The notes beneath the pieces are model-generated. The model did no database searches. It had not been told where the DNA came from and saw only the letters and a list, made by a program, of their open reading frames with translations. The position numbers were made by a program, and so were the translations under genes. Of a DNA stretch of 64,000 nucleotides, positions 2,070-45,177 are shown piece by piece (positions within the stretch are counted from its first letter, which is position 1; every line of letters begins with the position of its first letter). This stretch comes from Myxococcales bacterium (GTDB lineage Bacteria; Myxococcota_A; Polyangia; Palsa-1104; JAEUJZ01). Location: assembly GCA_016794505.1 (NCBI GenBank), contig JAEUJZ010000076.1, positions 128,001 to 192,000 on the forward strand. Direction: 5' to 3'.

Positions 2070-3727
2070 GCACACACCTGCTGCGGGCGGCGATCCGCGA
2101 TCGCTTGGCCGACGAACGACTGCTGGTGTCCGGCCGAAGCGATGGGGCGCTGCGCTTGCCCCTCATCTATCCCAGCCCGTATCACGTCGGCATGTCATCG
2201 CTGGGTTTTCAGACGGTGTACCGCCTGCTGAATCAGCCAGACACCGCGGGCTGGCCCGTGCCGCGACCGCTTCTGCGGGCCGAGCGCGCCTTTCTGCCCG
2301 ACGATGTCGCAGCCTGGCGACGCAGCCGCTTGCCGCTTCTGACGTATGAATCGCAGGCGCCAGTCGGTGATGCGCCGCTGCTGCTGTTTTCCATCGCCTA
2401 CGAGCTTGAGATCACCGGCCTGTTTACTTGCCTAGATCTAGCCGGCCTGCCGATCCTGCGCAGCCAGCGCGGCCCTGGGCAGCCGCTCGTCATCTGCGGC
2501 GGACCGCTGACCTTTTCCAACCCGCTGCCGCTCGGCCCCTTCGTCGACGTGGTGGTGATGGGCGAGGCCGAAGAGACGCTGCCAGCGCTTCTGTCAGCGA
2601 TCTGGGATGCCGGTCTGAACCCAAGTCCAGGCCGCGGAAACGCGGACGCGCTGTCGAGCGGAAGCGGACGCGAGGCCCTGCTTTCTGCGCTGGCCACGCT
2701 GCCAGGCGTATGGGTGCCGTCGGTGCATGGCGAGGTACTGCCCAAGGTCGGCCAGTGTGACGATGCGCTGCTGCCCGCGACGTCCGCCATTTTGACGCCG
2801 CATACCGAGCTGCGATCGATGTTCTTGATCGAGCCCGAGCGCGGCTGCTCGCGCGGCTGCACATACTGCGTCATGCGGCGCAGCACCAACGGCGGCATGC
2901 GCTTGGTCTCGCCCGAGCGGGTAAAGAGCCTGCTTCCCGACGACATCACGCGCGTCGGCTTGGTTGGCGCGGCGGTGACCGATCACCCGCGCTTGCCGCA
3001 GATCCTGCACCACATCGTCGTCGAACGCGGCCTGGAAGTGGGCATCAGCTCGCTGCGCGCCGACCGCTTGACGTCCGAGATCGTCGGACTTCTGCGACAG
3101 GGTGGCTACCGCACGCTGACCGTGGCCAGCGACGGCGCCTCTGAGCGCATGCGCGAGCTCGTCGAGCGCAGGACGCGCGAGCGCCATCTTTTGCGCGCCG
3201 CCGAGCTAGCCAAGCAGCACGATCTGCGCACGCTCAAGGTCTACATGATGGTGGGTTTGCCCGGCGAGACCGATGCTGACATCGACGAGCTCGTGCGCTT
3301 CGCAGGCGAGCTTGCGCAGCACTGCCGGCTCGCCTTTGGGGTCGCGCCCTTCGTTGCCAAGCGCAACACGCCGCTCGACGGAGCGCCGTTTGCCGGCATC
3401 GCGGACGTCGAAGCGCGCCTAGATCGCCTGCGTCGCGGGCTGCGCGGCATCGCGGATGTGCGCCCGACGTCGGCGCGCTGGGCCTGGGTCGAGTACCTCT
3501 TGGCCCAAGGCGACAGCGACGCCGGACTGCGAGCCTGGGTCGCACACCAAAATGGCGGCGGCTTTGCCGCCTGGCGGCGGGCCTTTTCCGGCTATGCGAC
3601 GCGGCTTGAGCGCCTGGCAGCGGCCGCAGCACCCGCCGATTCATCCCACGACGCAGGGACCGCGCCTGCGGACTCGGCGAACCGCGGCCAGACGCGACGA
3701 TCTTTGCCCGTGCTGGCAGAAGCCTAG
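2066..3727 (+). CDS. B12-binding-domain radical SAM protein
   Basis: 'CSRGCTYC' is a CxxxCxxC radical-SAM cluster motif. The N-terminal region looks like a B12-binding-like domain. GTG start overlapping the upstream stop. Confidence 0.85.
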   Translation: MSTHLLRAAIRDRLADERLLVSGRSDGALRLPLIYPSPYHVGMSSLGFQTVYRLLNQPDTAGWPVPRPLLRAERAFLPDDVAAWRRSRLPLLTYESQAPVGDAPLLLFSIAYELEITGLFTCLDLAGLPILRSQRGPGQPLVICGGPLTFSNPLPLGPFVDVVVMGEAEETLPALLSAIWDAGLNPSPGRGNADALSSGSGREALLSALATLPGVWVPSVHGEVLPKVGQCDDALLPATSAILTPHTELRSMFLIEPERGCSRGCTYCVMRRSTNGGMRLVSPERVKSLLPDDITRVGLVGAAVTDHPRLPQILHHIVVERGLEVGISSLRADRLTSEIVGLLRQGGYRTLTVASDGASERMRELVERRTRERHLLRAAELAKQHDLRTLKVYMMVGLPGETDADIDELVRFAGELAQHCRLAFGVAPFVAKRNTPLDGAPFAGIADVEARLDRLRRGLRGIADVRPTSARWAWVEYLLAQGDSDAGLRAWVAHQNGGGFAAWRRAFSGYATRLERLAAAAAPADSSHDAGTAPADSANRGQTRRSLPVLAEA

Positions 3728-4514: not shown

Positions 4515-5564
4515 ATGAACGAACGTCAGACCCTAGATGCCGTCAAGGATTACTACGGGCGTGTGCTCCAGAGCTCAGGCGATCTGCAGACCAGCGCCTG
4601 CTGCACGGCCGACAGCATGCCCGTGTACCTGCGGCCCATCGAAGCGCAGCTTCACGACGAGGTGCGCGATCGCTTTTACGGCTGCGGCTCGCCGATTCCG
4701 CTGTGCTTGCAGGGCGCGACCGTGCTCGATCTGGGCTGCGGCTCGGGCCGCGATACGTTTATTTTGTCCAAGCTGGTCGGCGAGCACGGCCAGGTCATCG
4801 GCGTCGACATGACCGACGAGCAGCTTGCCGTCGCCAGCCGCCATCGTGACTACCACGCGCAGAAGTTTGGCTACGCCCAGTCGAACGTGCGCTTGGTGCA
4901 GGCCTATATCGAAGACCTGCGCAGCGCCGGCATTGCCGATGCATCGGTTGACGTCGTGATCTCGAACTGCGTCATCAACCTGTCGCCGGACAAGGGCCGC
5001 GTCTTTTCCGAGATCTTCCGCGTGCTCAAGCCCGGTGGCGAGCTGTACTTCTCAGACGTGTTTTCCGGGCGCCGTGTGCCCAAGCACCTTGCCGTCGATC
5101 CGCTGGTCTTGGGCGAGTGCCTGGGCGGCGCGCTGTACATCGAAGACTTTCGCCGCCTGCTGCGCTCTGTCGGCTGCCTCGATTATCGCGTCGTAAACAG
5201 CCGCCGCATCGAGCTGGGCAACCCCGACATCGAGCAGCGCGCCGGCATGATCGACTTCTATTCAAAGACGATCCGCGCGTTCAAGCTCGACCTGGAAGAC
5301 CTCTGCGAAGACTACGGGCAAGTCGCGTACTACCAGGGCACGCTGGCGGAAAGTCCGCACCAGTTTCTGCTCGACGATCACCACCTGTTTAAGACCGGGC
5401 AGCCGATGCTGGTCTGCGGCAACACCGCGGCCATGGTCGGCGACACGCGCTATGCCCGCCACTTCAAGATCCTCGGCGATCGCTCGACCCACTTTGGACC
5501 GTTCGATTGCGCGCCCAGCCCCGGCGGCGCCATCGCCACACCGGCCAGCGGCGCCTGCTGCTAA
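4515..5564 (+). CDS. arsM: arsenite S-adenosylmethionine methyltransferase-like (ArsM/AS3MT family)
   Basis: N-terminal 'VKDYYGRVLQSSGDLQTSACC' with conserved Cys residues. SAM-binding 'VLDLGCGSGRD'. 'ISNCVINL' motif and C-terminal Cys-rich tail typical of ArsM. Confidence 0.7.
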   Translation: MNERQTLDAVKDYYGRVLQSSGDLQTSACCTADSMPVYLRPIEAQLHDEVRDRFYGCGSPIPLCLQGATVLDLGCGSGRDTFILSKLVGEHGQVIGVDMTDEQLAVASRHRDYHAQKFGYAQSNVRLVQAYIEDLRSAGIADASVDVVISNCVINLSPDKGRVFSEIFRVLKPGGELYFSDVFSGRRVPKHLAVDPLVLGECLGGALYIEDFRRLLRSVGCLDYRVVNSRRIELGNPDIEQRAGMIDFYSKTIRAFKLDLEDLCEDYGQVAYYQGTLAESPHQFLLDDHHLFKTGQPMLVCGNTAAMVGDTRYARHFKILGDRSTHFGPFDCAPSPGGAIATPASGACC

Positions 5565-5743
5565 GAGGCTGTCCTCGTCACGGGCGATTACGCCACCAGT
5601 CACCTAGGTCGGTTTGACACGCACGCGCGGCGCAGGACGCGGACGCGCTGATTCCTCCGCCGGGACCAGTGCTTAGCGGTACCGCTCGACTCGTCCCCGC
5701 CTTTCTGAGTAGTGTTTGAGGCGAGTTTTACTGGGGGATTCGC

Positions 5744-17490: not shown

Positions 17491-17512
17491 TCGTCGTTTA
17501 TGCTAGTGGCTG

Positions 17513-18904
17513 ATGCGCGATGGAAGCACCGTAGCGACGGTTCACAGCGAGGCTCTGCCGGGATCGAGCGGAGCCGCCCGCGGCTGTCAGCTGGTCGTCG
17601 TCGAAGGCCCAGATAGCGGACGCGCGGCAAGCCTGCGCAGCGACGGCAGCGAGACCCTGGTCGGCGGTGCGTCGGACTGCGACTTGGTGCTGCGCGACGA
17701 GCGCGTCTCGCGTCGACACCTGGCCGTGCGCGAGCTAGCCGGGCGCTTCGTCGTTCGCGACCTGGGCAGCAAGAACGGCACGCTGTACGAAGGCTCGCTG
17801 ATCAGCGAGGTCAGCGTCGGTGCCGGAGCCACATTCAAGCTCGGGCGCAGCTTCGTTCGCATCCAGCCGCGACCGCAGGCGCTTGAGGTTGCGCCCAGTC
17901 AGTCGCGCCGCTTCGGCGACATGGTGGCCGAGAGCCTGAGCATGCGCGAGATCTTCGCGGTGCTAGAGCTTGCGGCCGGCTCGGACGTCACCGTGCTGCT
18001 TGAAGGCGAGACCGGCACCGGAAAAGAGCTCGCGGCCCGCGCCATCCACGAAAAGAGCGCCCGTCGCACCGGCCCCTTCGTCGCCATCGACTGCGGCGCC
18101 CTGCCCGAGACGCTGCTTGAAAGCGAGCTATTCGGCCACGTCAAAGGCGCGTTCACCGGGGCCGCGCAGAGCCGTGCCGGCGCCTTCGCCCGCGCCCACG
18201 GTGGCACCATTTTTCTCGACGAGCTGGGCACGGTTCCGCTAGCGATGCAGGCCCGCCTGCTGCGCGTGCTGGAAGAGCGCACGGTGCGGCCGGTGGGCGC
18301 CGATCTAGAAAAGCGCGTCGACGTGCGTGTGCTGGCCGCCTCGCCCAACGATCTGAACACGCGCGTGGCCGAGGGCGCCTTTCGCGCCGACCTGTTCTAT
18401 CGCCTGTCCGTCGTGCGCGTGGTGCTGCCGCCGCTGCGCGCTCGTCGCGAAGACATCCCGACGCTGGTGACCGAGCTTCTGCGACGACGAGGCCTGGCCG
18501 CGGGGCGGGTCTTTGGCCCGAACCTGGATCGGCTGATGGCGCACTCGTTCCCCGGCAACCTGCGCGAGCTTCGCAACATCATCGACCGCGCCTTGGCCTT
18601 GTCACCGGGAGCCGCCGCCTTCGCCGATCTGCGACTGCAGATCACGCCTCAGCCCATGGAAGAAGGCGTCGCGGTACGCAGCGATCTGCCCTATGCCGAA
18701 GCCAAAGCGGCGCTCTTGCACAGCTTCGAGCTGCGCTATCTGCGCGACCTGCACCAGCGGCATCAAGGCAACATCTCGGCCGCGGCGCGGGCCTCGGGCT
18801 TGGATCGCAAGCACCTGCGCTTGCTGCTGCGCAAGCACGGCCTGGTCGCCGCGCAGGACACCCCAGCCAGCACGCCCAGCGACGAAGACGAGCGCGAAGA
18901 ATAG
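17513..18904 (+). CDS. sigma-54-dependent transcriptional activator with N-terminal FHA domain
   Basis: FHA signature '[25 protein letters not shown]'. AAA+ sigma-54 interaction motifs '[18 protein letters not shown]', 'GAFTGA', 'ESELFGH'. C-terminal Fis-type HTH. Confidence 0.85.
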
Positions 18905-19806: not shown

Positions 19807-20038
19807 CGGCCTCTCCGTCGAGAACCGCGCGCCGCCTGGGGGATCATCCCCCCACCCCAGGCGCTTTGGCCCGCTTCAGCTGGGGGATGTTTCCCCGCCC
19901 ATCCCAGACTGCCCGGAGTATACGCGGTGCTTCAAAGACAAAATGATAAATATGTAATCAGGATCATCCACGTATGCTGTTCTGATTCTTTGACTTGTTG
20001 TTCTTGTCTTCAACCACATCTTGAAATCCTTCAACAGC

Positions 20039-20245
20039 TCAGGCTTCCACAAAAGGACTGGCTATTTTATTGATATTTTCCATAGGGAGACCGAGCTTCA
20101 GATTCGTATTGATAATGATCTTGTTGCGCTTTGCCCGAATGGCATCATTCACAATTTCCTCAATGGAGGCGAGCACAAAAGCCGAGCACTCCTCGTAGTC
20201 GAGACACTGCTTTGGTTGCTTCAATTCAAGTTTATCGTATTGCAT
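20039..20245 (-). CDS. orphan small ORF (68 aa) inside an AT-rich island
   Basis: The only protein-like ORF in the ~370-bp low-GC segment at 19920-20290. Charged, helical-looking sequence with no recognisable family. A competing 88-aa ORF lies on the + strand. Confidence 0.2.
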   Translation of the reverse strand: MQYDKLELKQPKQCLDYEECSAFVLASIEEIVNDAIRAKRNKIIINTNLKLGLPMENINKIASPFVEA

Positions 20246-27216: not shown

Positions 27217-29157
<1,941 letters not shown>

Positions 29158-29180
29158 GCAGGCGCCGGAGTAACCGGCCA

Positions 29181-29222
29181 ACAACTTCAAAAATAGATAC
29201 TAAATATACTTTATTATATTTA
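29181..29222. repeat. perfect 18-bp AT-rich inverted repeat (hairpin) downstream of ftsH
   Basis: 'AAATAGATACTAAATATA' (29181-29198) pairs with 'TATATTTAGTATCTATTT' (29205-29222) across a 6-nt loop, followed by a T-rich tract. It sits in a ~130-bp AT-rich island. Confidence 0.8.
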
Positions 29223-29414
29223 GTATCTATTTCTTAATATTTTACTGATAATTTATCTCTATTTCAGTCCTCATCACCCGTTACGCCAATAAGCTCCTAA
29301 CCGCACATCGCAAGGTCGCTGTCGCTGTTCGACACGACCAAGACCGCGTGCAGCCGGGACCTTCGGTCTAAGGATGTTGCGTGCGCAGCCGAGGGACGTG
29401 AAGCCGGGGCGCGC

Positions 29415-31556: not shown

Positions 31557-32941
31557 TGGCGGCCACGTCGAAAAAAAAACAGCCCAGCTCGACGCAGGCG
31601 AAGCTGATCCTGGAACAGAACCACAGCCTGCCCTTGTGCCGGGTGCAAGTGACGCTGCGCACAGGTGCCGCCAGCGACGCCAAGCCCGGACCCGAGCTGG
31701 GCTTGGGCAAGCTGCCCGACGGCGCCATGGCCGGCCTGTGCAACTATGTGACCGAGCTTCAGCGACGCGGAGCCGGGGGCAAGACGCGGGCTCAGCTCGA
31801 AGATGCCATCGATGCCTTGGGCGCGTCGGTGCAGGTTCTGTGCTGGCATGACTCGGTGCTGTTCGAGGCGATGGCGCTCAAAGAACACATCGATGCGGCC
31901 TGCGCCATCCTTGCCGATGTCCTTGCGCGTCCCGACTTTTCCCAAAGCGAAAGCGACAAGCTGCGGCGCGAGCTAGACGCCAACCTAGACGATCTGCGCG
32001 ACGACGATGGATCGCTGGCCGGGCGCTTTTTTGCCCGCGCCCTGTACGGCAGTCACCCGTATGCTCTGCCCGTTGGCGGCACGCACGACAGCATCGCGCG
32101 CTATCGCGTCGATCTGGCGCGCACCTGGTTTTCCCATCATCTGGTCGCGGGAAACGTCGTCTATGGCGTCTCGGGCGCGCTGGGCGAAGACGAAGCGCAG
32201 GCTCTTTTGGCGCGCCACTTCACAGGCGCTGCCAAGGCCCTGCCCGCCGGCCCCGTCCGCGACGTGGATCTAAGCCCGCCCCCCGTGGCGAAAAAAGCCC
32301 GCCGCAGGCTGCGCGTCGTCGTTGTCGACAAGCCCAACCGCACGCAGTCGCAGATCTATATGGGTCAGCTGGCGCCACACTGGCGCGATGCTCACTATCT
32401 GCCGCTTCTGGTTTCCACGACGGCATTTGGCGGAACCTTTACCGCTCGCTTGATGGATGAAGTGCGCGTCAAGCGCGGCCTTTCGTATGGCGCGTCGGCG
32501 CGCTTGGGCCAAGGACGCGGGGTGCGCGGCCTGGTGGTCCACGTCATGCCGTCCGCCGAGCAGACCGGCGAGACGCTCGAGCTGATCCTGCGCCTGTATC
32601 GCGAGTGGGCCGAAGGTGGCCTGCGTCCCGAGGAGGTCGCGTTCAGCAAGGGCTATCTGCAAAAGAGCCACGCCTTTACCATCCAGACCGCCGACGATCG
32701 CTTGGCGCTGCGCACGCGCCTGCTGCTCTGCGATATGCCGCAGGGCTATGTCACCGACTTCCCCGAGCGCATCGCTGCCGTCGACGAAAAAGCCATTCGC
32801 CAGGCGATGGATGCCTGTCTGCACCCCGACGAGCTCGTCGTGACGCTGGTGGCCACGGCGAAAAATGTCCTGCCGCAGCTTGCCAAGATCGCCGCCCTTA
32901 AGAACGCCGAGATCGAGGTCCTGCCCTTCGATAGCTATTAG
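31556..32941 (+). CDS. M16 family peptidase (second, likely non-catalytic partner)
   Basis: M16 fold-like sequence with no HxxEH motif. Its start overlaps the upstream stop (TAATG). Confidence 0.75.
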   Translation: MAATSKKKQPSSTQAKLILEQNHSLPLCRVQVTLRTGAASDAKPGPELGLGKLPDGAMAGLCNYVTELQRRGAGGKTRAQLEDAIDALGASVQVLCWHDSVLFEAMALKEHIDAACAILADVLARPDFSQSESDKLRRELDANLDDLRDDDGSLAGRFFARALYGSHPYALPVGGTHDSIARYRVDLARTWFSHHLVAGNVVYGVSGALGEDEAQALLARHFTGAAKALPAGPVRDVDLSPPPVAKKARRRLRVVVVDKPNRTQSQIYMGQLAPHWRDAHYLPLLVSTTAFGGTFTARLMDEVRVKRGLSYGASARLGQGRGVRGLVVHVMPSAEQTGETLELILRLYREWAEGGLRPEEVAFSKGYLQKSHAFTIQTADDRLALRTRLLLCDMPQGYVTDFPERIAAVDEKAIRQAMDACLHPDELVVTLVATAKNVLPQLAKIAALKNAEIEVLPFDSY

Positions 32942-33044
32942 GCAGCGGCGACGGCAAGCCCAGTATAAATTAACATATATTGTTCGATATTTCTTTTATA
33001 TTCGTATTTATTAATTGACGCATTCATTTCTAATTATTCAACAT

Positions 33045-42017: not shown

Positions 42018-42443
42018 TTGAACGTGAGTAGCAGCGAGACGTTCATCGACAACTATCGGCTGTGGGTGGAAGACGACGTGCTCTGCCTGCGCGCCAGCGG
42101 CCCCATGACGTCCGCGATTGTCGACTGGCTGGTGGTAACAGTGCCCGATCTCTTGTCGCGCCATGCGCACTACTACATCCTGGCCGATCTGATCGACGCG
42201 GGTGCGATCTCGCCTGAGCTGCGCCGCCGCATCGTCGAGTTCACCGCGGCCCATCCGCCGCGCGCCATCGCCTTTTTTCACGTCGGGCTTATCGCCAAGG
42301 GCGTCAATGCGCTGCTGCTTGGAGCGCTGAACTTGTTCAGCAAGCGCAAGCAGCTTTGGCTGCAGTGCAACACGGAAGGCGAAGCCCGCGCCTGGCTGAA
42401 TGAACAGCGCCCCGGTCGCCATCACAGCGCGGCCCATTCGTAG
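42018..42443 (+). CDS. hypothetical cytosolic protein (STAS-like?)
   Basis: 141 aa with high GC3, from a TTG/GTG start. Preferred over the overlapping Arg-rich antisense ORF 41916-42677. Confidence 0.45.
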   Translation: MNVSSSETFIDNYRLWVEDDVLCLRASGPMTSAIVDWLVVTVPDLLSRHAHYYILADLIDAGAISPELRRRIVEFTAAHPPRAIAFFHVGLIAKGVNALLLGALNLFSKRKQLWLQCNTEGEARAWLNEQRPGRHHSAAHS

Positions 42444-42651: not shown

Positions 42652-43680
42652 TTACGGCTGCGGACCCGCGAACACAATCTGCATCAGCTCGTACGACACC
42701 ACGTTGCCGACTCCGGTGTTCTTGATGATGATGTAGCGGTTCTTCTTGGTGGTCAGGTTCACACCCAGAAGCGCGAACTTGTCCCACGCAATCGTGATGT
42801 TGCCGCTACCGCTGATCGCTTCCGTGACCAGCGCATTGCCCGTGCGATAGAACGTGTCGATCTCGGCGAACGAGTTCATACCGCAGCAGTCCGGCGAATC
42901 CGAGAACAGCTTCCACTCTTGACCCACCTGCGGCATGACGGCCGGAAGCTGCAGGATGACGCTTCCCGATGAGCTCGACTGAACGATCTTGTTCGCATCG
43001 ACCTTCAGGCTCAGCGCGTCCCAGTTGATGCCGTAGTTGGGTGGCGGCACCGACGAGCCAACGGCCGTTGCCTTGACCGTCGCATACGTCGCGGGCGGCG
43101 CGTTCAGCTCACACAGCGACTTATCATCCGACCAAATGGTGTTGATGATGAAGTCCTGGAAGTACGTGTCCGTCTGCCCCGGCGTTGGCGGCGAGTCCAG
43201 GCCCGTCAGACGCGCGTTGGCATAGAAGGCAAACCCAGTGGCCGGCGCCGGCAGGTTCACCGAGGCGGCAGCCGGTGGATAGGCGCGGCCCAGGTTGAAC
43301 GGCGTCGCCAGCGGATAGTCCTTGAGCGCCGGGTTCGAGCCTTCCTGCACCGTGATGCTCTTGAGCAAGAGCGGGCAACCGGTGATGGTGTCGTTCAGCG
43401 CCATCTCGACGGCTGGTGGCACGGTGACTGGGGCGCCGAAGGTCAGGGCCCAGTTTTCGTTCTTGTGAACTTTGCAGTTCGCGCCATACGTGCCCTTGAT
43501 GCCTTTCGGCAAAAGCGGGACGCTCTGTCCAGCGGGGCCGCTAAGAGCCTTGATCGCACGATCAAAGCCATCTCCGATACCCGAGACGTTGCCGCCATTT
43601 CCGCAGCCGCTAAGCGCGAATCCGGCCAGTGCCAAAGCGCCAATCATGGGACGAACGAACGACATAGTTAGGTTTGACAT
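42652..43680 (-). CDS. lipoprotein with unassigned C-terminal 'CC...F[AP]GPQ' domain (paralog A)
   Basis: Signal 'MSNLTMSFVRPMIGALALAGFALSGC'. GGAGA RBS before ATG at 43680. The C-terminal ~110 aa is homologous to paralog B. Confidence 0.6.
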   Translation of the reverse strand: MSNLTMSFVRPMIGALALAGFALSGCGNGGNVSGIGDGFDRAIKALSGPAGQSVPLLPKGIKGTYGANCKVHKNENWALTFGAPVTVPPAVEMALNDTITGCPLLLKSITVQEGSNPALKDYPLATPFNLGRAYPPAAASVNLPAPATGFAFYANARLTGLDSPPTPGQTDTYFQDFIINTIWSDDKSLCELNAPPATYATVKATAVGSSVPPPNYGINWDALSLKVDANKIVQSSSSGSVILQLPAVMPQVGQEWKLFSDSPDCCGMNSFAEIDTFYRTGNALVTEAISGSGNITIAWDKFALLGVNLTTKKNRYIIIKNTGVGNVVSYELMQIVFAGPQP

Positions 43681-43973
43681 GATGCTTTCTCCAGTGTTTA
43701 GCTTCGGGAAACAAGAGGGCTCTGAAATGTGAGGCTTCCGCTTCCCCGTTTTCCACCCCAGAGCCCCCGCTTCCGACGTCTTGAGTCTTGAGCACGCGCT
43801 GTGCCAACTGCAAAACAAGCTCATTTTGATGGGTATGTACGGATGAAGCAGGCCCAAGCCACTTCCCGCCTGCGAAAGACTTGCCACCAAGCCTTCTATT
43901 TATGAATTAAATTCGCTCTCGGCTTTCAACTATGCGATTTATCTAAACTCACATTGCACACTCTTGTGATTTC

Positions 43974-44000
43974 ATGTGGGCAATCAATTTATGCCCACAT
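43974..44000. promoter_or_regulatory. 9-9-9 palindrome in the AT-rich spacer (operator- or hairpin-like)
   Basis: 'ATGTGGGCA-atcaattta-TGCCCACAT' lies ~300 bp upstream of the paralog A start, inside a ~240-bp AT-rich island. Confidence 0.4.
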
Positions 44001-44176
44001 CGTCTGCCCGTCGTACTGTATGTGCGTTTAGAGCAAGAAACACATCGCGAAAATTATTCGCTTTGTGCGATTTTTATCGTGGATGGGTAAAAGACGGATC
44101 CGCCGCACACGGCGAAATCAAGGCGAGGTATAAAGGCGAGGTGTGAAGGCGGGGTGCAATGGGCGGGGTAAGGTGC

Positions 44177-44734
44177 CTATTGTGGGCCGGGGAAGACGAA
44201 CTCAAACAGAGCATAGGCCGGCTGGCCCGAGTCTGCCTGACGCCGCACGATTAGCTGGCGCTTCGTCGGCAGCATCTTGCCCATCAAGCCAAAGGCACGC
44301 CACGGCAGCACCTGCTCTCCGCTGCTTGTGATGCGCCCCGTGCTGGCCGGAGTCGCCGTGTTGTACAGCGAGTGCAGCGTGCCATAGGTGTATTGCTGGC
44401 AGCATGCGTCGCTGACATCGAACGTCTTCCATTCTTCACCGGGCTGGCTGTCTTTAGTTGCCAATCGTAAGACGATATTTCCCGATGAAGAGTCCTGCAC
44501 CACCAGATTGGCGTCTACCAGCAGTCGCAGGTTGTCAAAGGACCACAGATAATTCGGTGAAGCATCGGCCGCCGCCGCTGTGGCCGAGACCGAAGGCGGC
44601 GTACCGCTGCGATCCGCCGATTCGCTCTGTGTCGTAGTGGGCGTCGAACCACAGCCCAACCACAGTCCCAAACCAACGAGCCACGCGGCGTGCATACATG
44701 GGCTCCCGCGATGAAACAGACGAATCGGACGCAT
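44177..44734 (-). CDS. lipoprotein with unassigned C-terminal 'CC...F[AP]GPQ' domain (paralog B)
   Basis: Signal 'MRPIRLFHRGSPCMHAAWLVGLGLWLGC'. C-terminus 'VQDSSSGNIVLRLA..GEEWKTFDVSDACCQQY...FVFPGPQ' aligns with paralog A 'VQSSSSGSVILQLP..GQEWKLFSDSPDCCGMN...IVFAGPQP'. Confidence 0.55.
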   Translation of the reverse strand: MRPIRLFHRGSPCMHAAWLVGLGLWLGCGSTPTTTQSESADRSGTPPSVSATAAAADASPNYLWSFDNLRLLVDANLVVQDSSSGNIVLRLATKDSQPGEEWKTFDVSDACCQQYTYGTLHSLYNTATPASTGRITSSGEQVLPWRAFGLMGKMLPTKRQLIVRRQADSGQPAYALFEFVFPGPQ

Positions 44735-45177
44735 GATGTCCCCCCTTTCCGCGGCTCCGCATCAGGCGGGCCGCGCCCTGCTCCTTCGCAAGCCCTGGGC
44801 CAGTCATGCGGCTCGCTTCTCGACGGAAAAATTTTCCTCGTCCGCGCTTTCTGCGATCCATGCGGGGCGGCGCAGCCCGCGATTTCTTGCATCCGGCTTG
44901 GCGCGGGCTAAGCAAGCCAGCACTCCTCGCAAAAAATTGCGGCGACCGCGTCGCTGCGAAGCAAGCAGCGCCCTGCGGATCGATCGCCGGCTCGCTGAGG
45001 TGGGCAAAGCCAGTCCGCAGCCCCTGCCGGGCCACACCGGTCTCTGGCAGATTTTTCGCGATTCGCACAGCGCCTAACGGCAAGCGAGGCTCTATGCGCT
45101 GATCACGTATCAGCTGCCCTTGTGCCCAAAAACAAACAAAGAAAAACAGCGGGCTCGCCGCTTCTTCGCCAACCTTT

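Follow-up and report, generated by a model that had tools for sequence, protein, structure and literature searches.

A tandem pair of lipoprotein genes with probable sigma-54 promoters in an uncultured Polyangia-type myxobacterium

When two genes for related exported proteins lie one behind the other and are separated by a long AT-rich spacer, the question arises of how the second of them is transcribed and what the DNA between them contributes. The case considered here is the pair lipoB and lipoA in a 64,000-nucleotide (nt) stretch from a Myxococcales bacterium (GenBank assembly GCA_016794505.1, contig JAEUJZ010000076.1, positions 128,001 to 192,000 of the forward strand), referred to below as the window, whose overall GC content is 65%. 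Both genes are on the minus strand, so that lipoB, encoding 185 amino acids (aa), lies upstream and the larger lipoA downstream. An earlier reading made from the letters alone (the sequence-only reading) had drawn attention to the pair, to a palindrome in the spacer that it took for an operator or promoter of the downstream gene, and to a shared domain that it proposed as a new family. The interpretation favoured here, which the comparison of related loci makes probable, is that the locus consists of two conserved genes in tandem for envelope or secreted lipoproteins in an uncultured Polyangia-type myxobacterium and that each gene has its own sigma-54 (RpoN) promoter.

The products of the two genes are 38% identical over 128 aa at the C-terminus (BLASTP, E = 3e-27) and, judged by this alignment, are true paralogues; the coordinates and common strand given in the sequence-only reading are correct, and the shared motifs that it quoted (VQ.SSSG, GxEWK.F, CC and F.GPQ) are all reproduced. 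The mechanical open reading frame (ORF) for lipoA (42652..43890, TTG start, 412 aa) is over-extended, and the true start is placed at the ATG at 43680 on three grounds, namely how the 342-aa homologues align, where the gene is called in related contigs, and a conserved GGAGA Shine-Dalgarno sequence, which leaves 496 bp between the lipoB stop and the lipoA ATG. The closest public relative is the metagenome-assembled genome (MAG) 'uncultured Myxococcales bacterium SRP189682_co2_316' (locus L008), with a lipoA identity of 98%. The order lipoB-spacer-lipoA, with a spacer of 445-496 bp, is found in five lineages (window/L008, L004, L009, L011 and L013); in a further locus, L001, lipoA is retained but is preceded by an unrelated gene.

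Sigma-54 promoters have the consensus TGGCACG-N4-TTGCW, and their signature is a GG and a GC exactly 10 bp apart. The element upstream of lipoA reads TGGCAC-N5-GTGCT in the window, and when the spacers of six lineages are aligned (mean column identity 61%) it forms part of a block, TTGGCA(C/T)-N6-TGCT, in which TGGCA and TGCT are invariant while the bases between TGGCA(C/T) and TGCT vary (AGCGCG, AGCACG, GAGTCC, GGCATC). The distance from the element to the ATG is constant at 125-129 nt in six lineages, and the site matches TGGCAC-N5-TTGCW with a single mismatch, as does only one other in the 64 kb. At lipoA and lipoB alike the GG at -24/-25 and the GC at -12/-13 are exactly 10 bp apart, and both are invariant in all aligned lineages. 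Scored against the consensus, the lipoA site agrees at 10 of 12 positions, the lipoB site at 9 and the sites of distant orthologues at 10 or 11. These orthologues, whose proteins are 40-47% identical, have strong sense-strand sites 108-172 nt upstream in three of four cases (TGGAACGGCTCCTGCT in L007, TGGCACGGTGGCTGCT in L016 and TGGCACCTATTTTGCT in L018). In 274,000 positions of the same loci, the frequency of sites that have at least 10 of 12 matches and retain both GG and GC is 8.4e-5 per position, a background in which many of the hits are the lipoA sites themselves, so that a 200-nt window on the sense strand has a chance of at most 0.017 of containing such a site. The proposal that the spacer carries a dedicated promoter for the downstream paralogue is thus upheld by a conserved -24/-12 element at a fixed distance from the lipoA ATG. 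Locus L007 (Polyangia MAG GCA_046351595.1) also has a second sigma-54-like string, CGGCACGAGGCTTGCG, at about 5535-5550 and, at 5620-5680, about five tandem CCGTACT heptamers some 330 nt upstream of its lipoA orthologue.

The corresponding element of lipoB, TGGCCC-N5-TTGC(G/A), lies 53 nt before the ATG at 44734. In a 61%-identical intergenic alignment of the window, L008, L004, L009, L011 and L013 its GGCCC and CTTGC are invariant and the N5 is variable. At the other end of the gene there is a terminator-like hairpin with a T-rich tail, and short GC-rich hairpins with different stems occupy the matching position in L004, L009 and L011, their fold z-scores being individually weak. Since lipoB would have both a promoter of its own and a terminator-like hairpin, the two genes look like separate sigma-54 transcription units.

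Upstream of the lipoA element are conserved blocks that may be binding sites for an activator. The pentamer GCGAA is found at exactly -110 to -112 from the -24 element in five of the six lineages, the TTCGC of the block at -70 is inverted relative to it, and every lineage has inverted repeats of the form TTCGC(A)/(T)GCGAA between -243 and -263. Taken together, the six lipoA upstream regions contain 25 copies of GCGAA/TTCGC, as against 8.2 ± 2.7 in dinucleotide shuffles, of which 0/500 reached that number, a statistic that overstates independence because the lineages are related. The enriched pentamers sit at the same positions across lineages, and GCGAA is enriched upstream of lipoA only, not of lipoB. 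Relative to the predicted transcription start site (TSS) of lipoA the blocks fall at about -96, -136 and -280, distances typical of sigma-54 enhancer sites. The GC content of the spacer falls to about 40-44% around 43800-44100, being lowest, at about 40%, from roughly 43890 to 44100, and its AT-richness is kept in all lineages (46-51% GC, compared with 62-67% for the loci), a property that suits DNA looping. Elsewhere in the window, intergenic spots that are equally AT-rich (40-44% GC in 200-nt windows) occur at ~19900-20150, ~29100-29250 and ~32850-33000. The 13-nt tandem repeats at the lipoB end of the spacer are an insertion with respect to L004, L009, L011 and L013 and are regarded as lineage-specific filler. 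A second sigma-54 promoter considered at 43871-43886 (two mismatches) was rejected as improbable, its GG being broken in L001 though the block stays conserved.

An important consideration in interpreting this spacer is the part played by the palindrome, which the sequence-only reading treated as the operator of the downstream gene. The AT-rich spacer and the exact 9-N9-9 palindrome at 43974-44000 are both real, and the proposal that a dimeric regulator bound to ATGTGGGCA-N9-TGCCCACAT, some 207 bp upstream of the predicted start, activates or represses lipoA has points in its favour: the inverted repeat is perfect and, at p about 0.03, mildly improbable, a sigma-54 enhancer site could lie at such a position, L004 retains the left arm TGTGGGCA, and in L008 (GTGTGGGCA-N9-TGCCTACAC) the outermost pair has changed from A..T to G..C, so keeping the symmetry amid diverged flanking bases. 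When the spacer is dinucleotide-shuffled 2000 times, however, 2.75% of the shuffles contain a perfect inverted repeat (arms of 9 bp or more, loop of 3-20 nt), and 19 such repeats exist in the 64-kb window, so that the palindrome is only mildly unusual. Among the compared lineages it is present only in the window and in L008, the 98%-identical MAG; in L004 the place of the right arm falls in an insertion of the window sequence, and L009, L011, L013 and L001 have no palindrome yet keep the promoter, the leader and the GCGAA blocks. Nor does it behave as the site of a regulon: the 64 kb and the related loci contain no further copy, while a scan of JGI metagenomes found 49 loci, none of them beside a homologue and most belonging to a repeat family in one low-GC assembly (WLWD01), the remainder being scattered matches. 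A C-to-T change in the right arm of L008, moreover, leaves a pair that can form only as G.U and only in RNA from the sense strand, a pattern more in keeping with an RNA or DNA hairpin than with a sequence-specific protein site. This single comparison hints that it is the hairpin itself, rather than a sequence recognised by a protein, that is maintained in this lineage. A role as operator is accordingly unlikely, and the palindrome would be at most an accessory element specific to this lineage, not a conserved control element.

Two observations concern the metagenomic matches themselves. In loci L019-L067 (WLWD01/WLWG01/WLWI01, about 40-45% GC) the palindrome arms belong to a dispersed repeat family with conserved flanks, which looks like the terminus of a mobile element unrelated to the organism of the window. 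In L043 (Ga0335080_10071185), at 3267-3315, there is an extended 13-N9-13 palindrome, GACAATATGTGGGCA-TAATTGATA-TGCCCACATATTGTC, with a loop similar to that of the window; it lies between RidA-like and STAS-like genes in an unrelated contig of 59% GC, and the likeness is probably a coincidence.

The same palindrome might instead be an RNA hairpin at the 3' end of lipoB, either a terminator lacking a U-tract or a stabiliser of the 3' end, with no role in the expression of lipoA. The palindrome is placed 177 nt past the lipoB stop, its sense-strand hairpin is stable (-15.7 kcal/mol, z = -2.9), and all three differences in the L008 arms, which include one compensatory pair and one G.U, preserve pairing in the sense RNA. 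Set against this, no U-run follows the palindrome on either strand (the sense strand continues GAAATCACAA and the plus strand CGTCTGCCCG) and the terminator scan did not report it; the terminator-like hairpin with a T-rich tail at 44116-44089 is much nearer the stop, other lineages have hairpins there instead, and most lineages are without the palindrome. That it is simply the terminator of lipoB, a possibility that the sequence-only reading had itself raised against an operator, therefore does not fit what was found, and the wider proposal of a 3' hairpin is quite improbable.

A further possibility concerns the lipoA leader. An invariant CAA(G/A)ACGTCGG (43783-43773), which straddles the predicted TSS, precedes a stem-loop, and in a structure that was derived from the same alignment of only seven sequences in which it was assessed, 10 of its 22 pairs have changes on both sides, 88.9% of cells are paired as against at most 59% for slid controls, and the covariation is matched by 0/500 shuffles. 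A search of 43500-44400 against Rfam produced only a meaningless match to a long non-coding RNA (E = 1.5). It is conceivable, though we think it quite doubtful, that the ~100-nt leader, with its G-rich conserved bulges, is a new ligand- or protein-sensing cis-regulatory RNA, a layer added to sigma-54 control that governs how this Polyangia-restricted lipoprotein family is translated or how stable its messages are, and that the lipoprotein module itself is an unrecognised surface-anchoring scaffold grafted with ice-binding-like, lectin and protease domains.

The least likely alternative is that the -24/-12 matches are fortuitous, the genes being served by sigma-70/SigA or extracytoplasmic function sigma factor promoters and the conserved blocks being sites for conventional regulators, for although two-mismatch sigma-54-like strings are common in this GC-rich DNA, no upstream site was found for the fourth distant lipoA orthologue, L017, and a scan of 43500-44900 for sigma-70 promoters, which gave zero sites, is a weak test in that myxobacterial sigma-70 promoters fit the E. 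coli consensus poorly, the GG and GC are invariant at exact spacing, with varying bases between them, at two promoters in six lineages, and three independent distant orthologues again have upstream sites with 10 or more of the 12 matches, each with the small chance probability given above.

A number of points nevertheless weigh against the interpretation in terms of two sigma-54 promoters and a surface protein, among them the missing site of L017 and the relatedness of the lineages in which GCGAA is enriched. The sigma-54 pattern at up to two mismatches is not enriched across the window (28 found, 39 expected), so that it is conservation that carries the case. At the lipoB site no more than 9 of the 12 consensus positions agree, with C instead of A at -22. 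A k-mer search found no 8-mer common to the upstream regions of lipoA and lipoB, and co-regulation of the two genes by one activator is therefore not shown. An ORF for an enhancer-binding protein with the GAFTGA signature is present at 17507-18904 on the plus strand, about 25 kb from the lipoprotein locus, and no gene for a protein of this kind shows a consistent linkage to that locus. Finally, the function of the proteins is the weakest part of the account, being a guess from fold class, lipid anchor and fusion partners. The coordinates on which these arguments depend are collected in Table 1.

Table 1. Genes, domains and predicted regulatory features of the lipoB-lipoA locus, in positions of the 64,000-nt window
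Feature	Position	Strand	Remarks
lipoB	44734-44177	minus	185 aa; ORF list, with same-length orthologues at 59-98% identity
Shared domain in lipoB	44180-44563	minus	residues 58-185; domain alignment
lipoA	43680-42652	minus	342 aa; downstream of lipoB
Shared domain in lipoA	42655-43047	minus	residues 212-342; domain alignment
lipoB sigma-54-type element TGGCCCAGGGCTTGCG	44802..44787	minus	predicted TSS about 44776, giving a leader of ~42 nt
Tandem repeats, three of 13 nt, AAGGCGAGGTNTNAAGG	44120..44162	plus	directly after the lipoB stop; sequence given as read on the plus strand; repeat search
lipoB terminator-like hairpin CGCCG-TGTG-CGGCG with T-rich tail	44116-44089	minus	terminator scan; about 60 nt past the stop
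Distal block GCGAA-TAATT-TTCGC (inverted repeat)	44061-44047	minus	about -255 from the -24 element, ~-280 from the TSS; candidate activator site
Palindrome ATGTGGGCA-N9-TGCCCACAT	43974-43982/43992-44000		perfect 9-N9-9; ~207 bp upstream of the predicted lipoA TSS
Block GCGAATTTAAT	43906..43916	minus	~-136 relative to the TSS (-110 relative to the -24 element); first half-site of a candidate upstream activating sequence
Block GGCAAGTCTTTCGC	43872..43885	minus	~-96 relative to the TSS (-70 relative to the -24 element); second half-site of a candidate upstream activating sequence
lipoA -24/-12 element TGGCACAGCGCGTGCT	43806..43791	minus	sigma-54-type; predicted TSS about 43780
lipoA leader stem-loop	43774-43707	minus	~68 nt, 22 pairs; RNAalifold on 7 lineages
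lipoA Shine-Dalgarno sequence GGAGA	43688..43692	minus	7 nt 5' of the ATG at 43680; GGAGA..ATCATG invariant in the spacer alignment

Read along the minus strand, the spacer presents in order the lipoB hairpin, the GCGAA/TTCGC blocks with the palindrome among them at about -207, the -24/-12 element, and the ~100-nt leader with its stem-loop and ribosome-binding site. From what is known of sigma-54 in general, RNA polymerase carrying this factor would sit at -24/-12 in a closed complex. An enhancer-binding protein of the AAA+ class, probably the output of a two-component system, might then bind the conserved GCGAA/TTCGC blocks, and the AT-rich, bendable DNA would allow the activator to loop to the polymerase, giving an open complex and switching lipoA on; lipoB would be switched on from its own sigma-54 promoter. 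RpoN is expected to be present in a host belonging to the Myxococcota.

In several respects this arrangement resembles sigma-54 promoters with enhancers, such as enterobacterial glnAp2 with NtrC and the genes of Myxococcus xanthus that depend on NtrC-like proteins. The GG and GC of both genes have the same 10-bp spacing, lipoA has, like promoters of the glnAp2/NtrC type, an extended upstream region that is AT-rich and has conserved inverted-repeat blocks at about -96 and -136, and the host phylum is rich in enhancer-binding proteins, one gene for which is in the window. M. xanthus has about 53 enhancer-binding proteins, and sigma-54 regulons are biased towards functions of the cell exterior, including lipoproteins (PMC3162934); the predicted targets here, lipoA and lipoB, are likewise cell-exterior proteins. 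There are also differences. The IHF consensus WATCAANNNNTTR, looked for in all the spacers, is absent from them, that of lipoA included, unlike promoters of the glnAp2/NtrC type; the -12 region of lipoA is GTGCT or CTGCT instead of the canonical TTGCW; and a gap of about 40 bp separates the candidate half-sites GCGAA and TTCGC, which do not form a compact palindrome.

What kind of protein is made under this control can be approached from the two layouts. The lipoB product consists of a signal peptide with the lipobox LWLG-C, a low-complexity linker of Thr, Ser, Ala and Pro, and the shared C-terminal domain, and that of lipoA of a lipid anchor, an N-terminal beta-sandwich (about residues 30-205) and the shared domain. 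The lipoA lipobox (FALSG-C) is canonical, matching [LVI][ASTVI][GAS]-C, and its Cys26 is nearly invariant in close homologues and invariant in an alignment of 66 sequences. In common with other lipoproteins of the Myxococcota, substrates of Lgt and LspA, lipoA has a signal peptide, an L-S-G-C lipobox and no Lys at +2. The W-L-G-C of lipoB differs from these in its atypical residue at -3, a Trp that falls outside the classical pattern yet is kept in lipoB orthologues. Both proteins are best described as of the exported lipoprotein type, with lipoB a probable lipoprotein.

The sequence-only reading was right in placing the shared domain outside the recognised families. Pfam-A gave zero matches for lipoA, for lipoB and for the shared-domain region of ten distant family members, NCBIfam gave only sub-threshold signal-peptide noise for lipoA and lipoB, and a profile of the 66-sequence family matched zero chains among the PDB sequences even at E<=1. 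Modelled alone from 21 aligned sequences, the domain was predicted with high confidence (predicted local distance difference test score, pLDDT, 92.8; predicted template modelling score 0.86) as a beta-sandwich with one inserted alpha-helix (domain residues 60-69), and a model of full-length lipoA (pLDDT 78) adds the N-terminal beta-sandwich. Foldseek searches with the domain gave a best E no lower than 0.025, the top matches being Ig-like domains of the Marinomonas ice-binding adhesin, and its top structural neighbours are the Marinomonas primoryensis adhesin Ig-like domains (4kdv, 4p99, 6x6q), the soluble domain of PmoD (6cpd) and a lytic polysaccharide monooxygenase/chitin-binding domain (3uam). 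On the strength of the model, the domain is an unnamed sequence family with a commonplace Ig/FN3-like extracytoplasmic beta-sandwich fold, so that the claim of a novel secreted-domain family holds at the level of sequence, where there is no curated family, but not at the level of fold. It shares with Ig-like and FN3-like surface domains an all-beta sandwich of about 100-125 residues, an extracytoplasmic location and, in its distant relatives, modular use beside Ice_binding, Big_5, lectin and protease domains, and differs from them in the inserted helix and in a vicinal Cys-Cys found in the close clade. A copper site, suggested by the fold matches to PmoD and CopC, was rejected, since the shared-domain alignment, unlike proteins of that type, has no conserved His or Met ligands. 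An internal duplication within lipoA was rejected as well, its N- and C-terminal domains being unrelated by profile comparison (probability 0.2%).

As to the spread of the family, an exhaustive search of 1.84 billion cluster representatives with a hidden Markov model of the domain gave 181 matching clusters (at 50% identity) at E<=1e-3, of which 30 reach E<=1e-10 and 14 reach E<=1e-30. Word-index protein searches yielded 18 lipoA-like and 7 lipoB-like clusters, all unnamed or 'hypothetical', a third such search with the 66-sequence profile added no members, and those members with a named source are hypothetical proteins of Polyangia MAGs. The typical member is ~300 aa long with the domain at its C-terminus, and most have a signal peptide and a lipobox-like Cys, as judged from N-termini read by eye. 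By this comparison lipoA has the standard architecture of the family and lipoB is a shortened form with the C-terminal domain only. A few distant members are fused to Ice_binding, Big_5, Peptidase_M10, NHL, Ricin-B or LamG, all of them extracellular modules. Tandem duplication recurs in the family, L007 having copies of 326 and 327 aa that are 34 nt apart and L018 copies of 330 and 332 aa.

The surroundings of the locus vary among relatives. Histidine kinase genes (PAS-HisKA-HATPase, some with a receiver) adjoin it in three independent clades (L007; L016; L004/L009/L011/L013) and are possibly the sensing arm of the regulatory system; no histidine kinase gene is adjacent to the locus in the window. 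Other recurrent neighbours are a divergent gene for a LamB-like porin upstream of lipoB (L004/L009) and a gene for protein-L-isoaspartate methyltransferase (PCMT) downstream of lipoA (L001/L004/L013). The window has neither of these and is flanked by an E1-alpha dehydrogenase gene and an MltA-like gene. A 141-aa ORF (42018-42443, plus strand, GC at third codon positions 0.80), convergent with lipoA and without family assignment, was considered as a counterpart of the conserved 142-aa gene that follows lipoA in L004, L009, L011 and L013, and proved not to be homologous to it.

The two proteins probably serve, at the cell surface or in the periplasm, as binding or scaffold modules attached through a lipid anchor, a role suggested by that anchor, by the beta-sandwich fold, by the conserved cysteines and by fusion partners that are extracellular. 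Fold class, lipid anchoring and promoter type are all well known, and there is no new mechanism here. What the locus adds is a family of lipoprotein domains that has no name, numbers ~180 clusters at 50% identity and comes with a high-confidence model and clear boundaries, together with a comparatively supported example of sigma-54 promoters in the uncultured Polyangia that comprises two probable promoters, candidate enhancer blocks and a structured leader. These elements could seed the prediction of regulons in a phylum with dozens of orphan enhancer-binding proteins.

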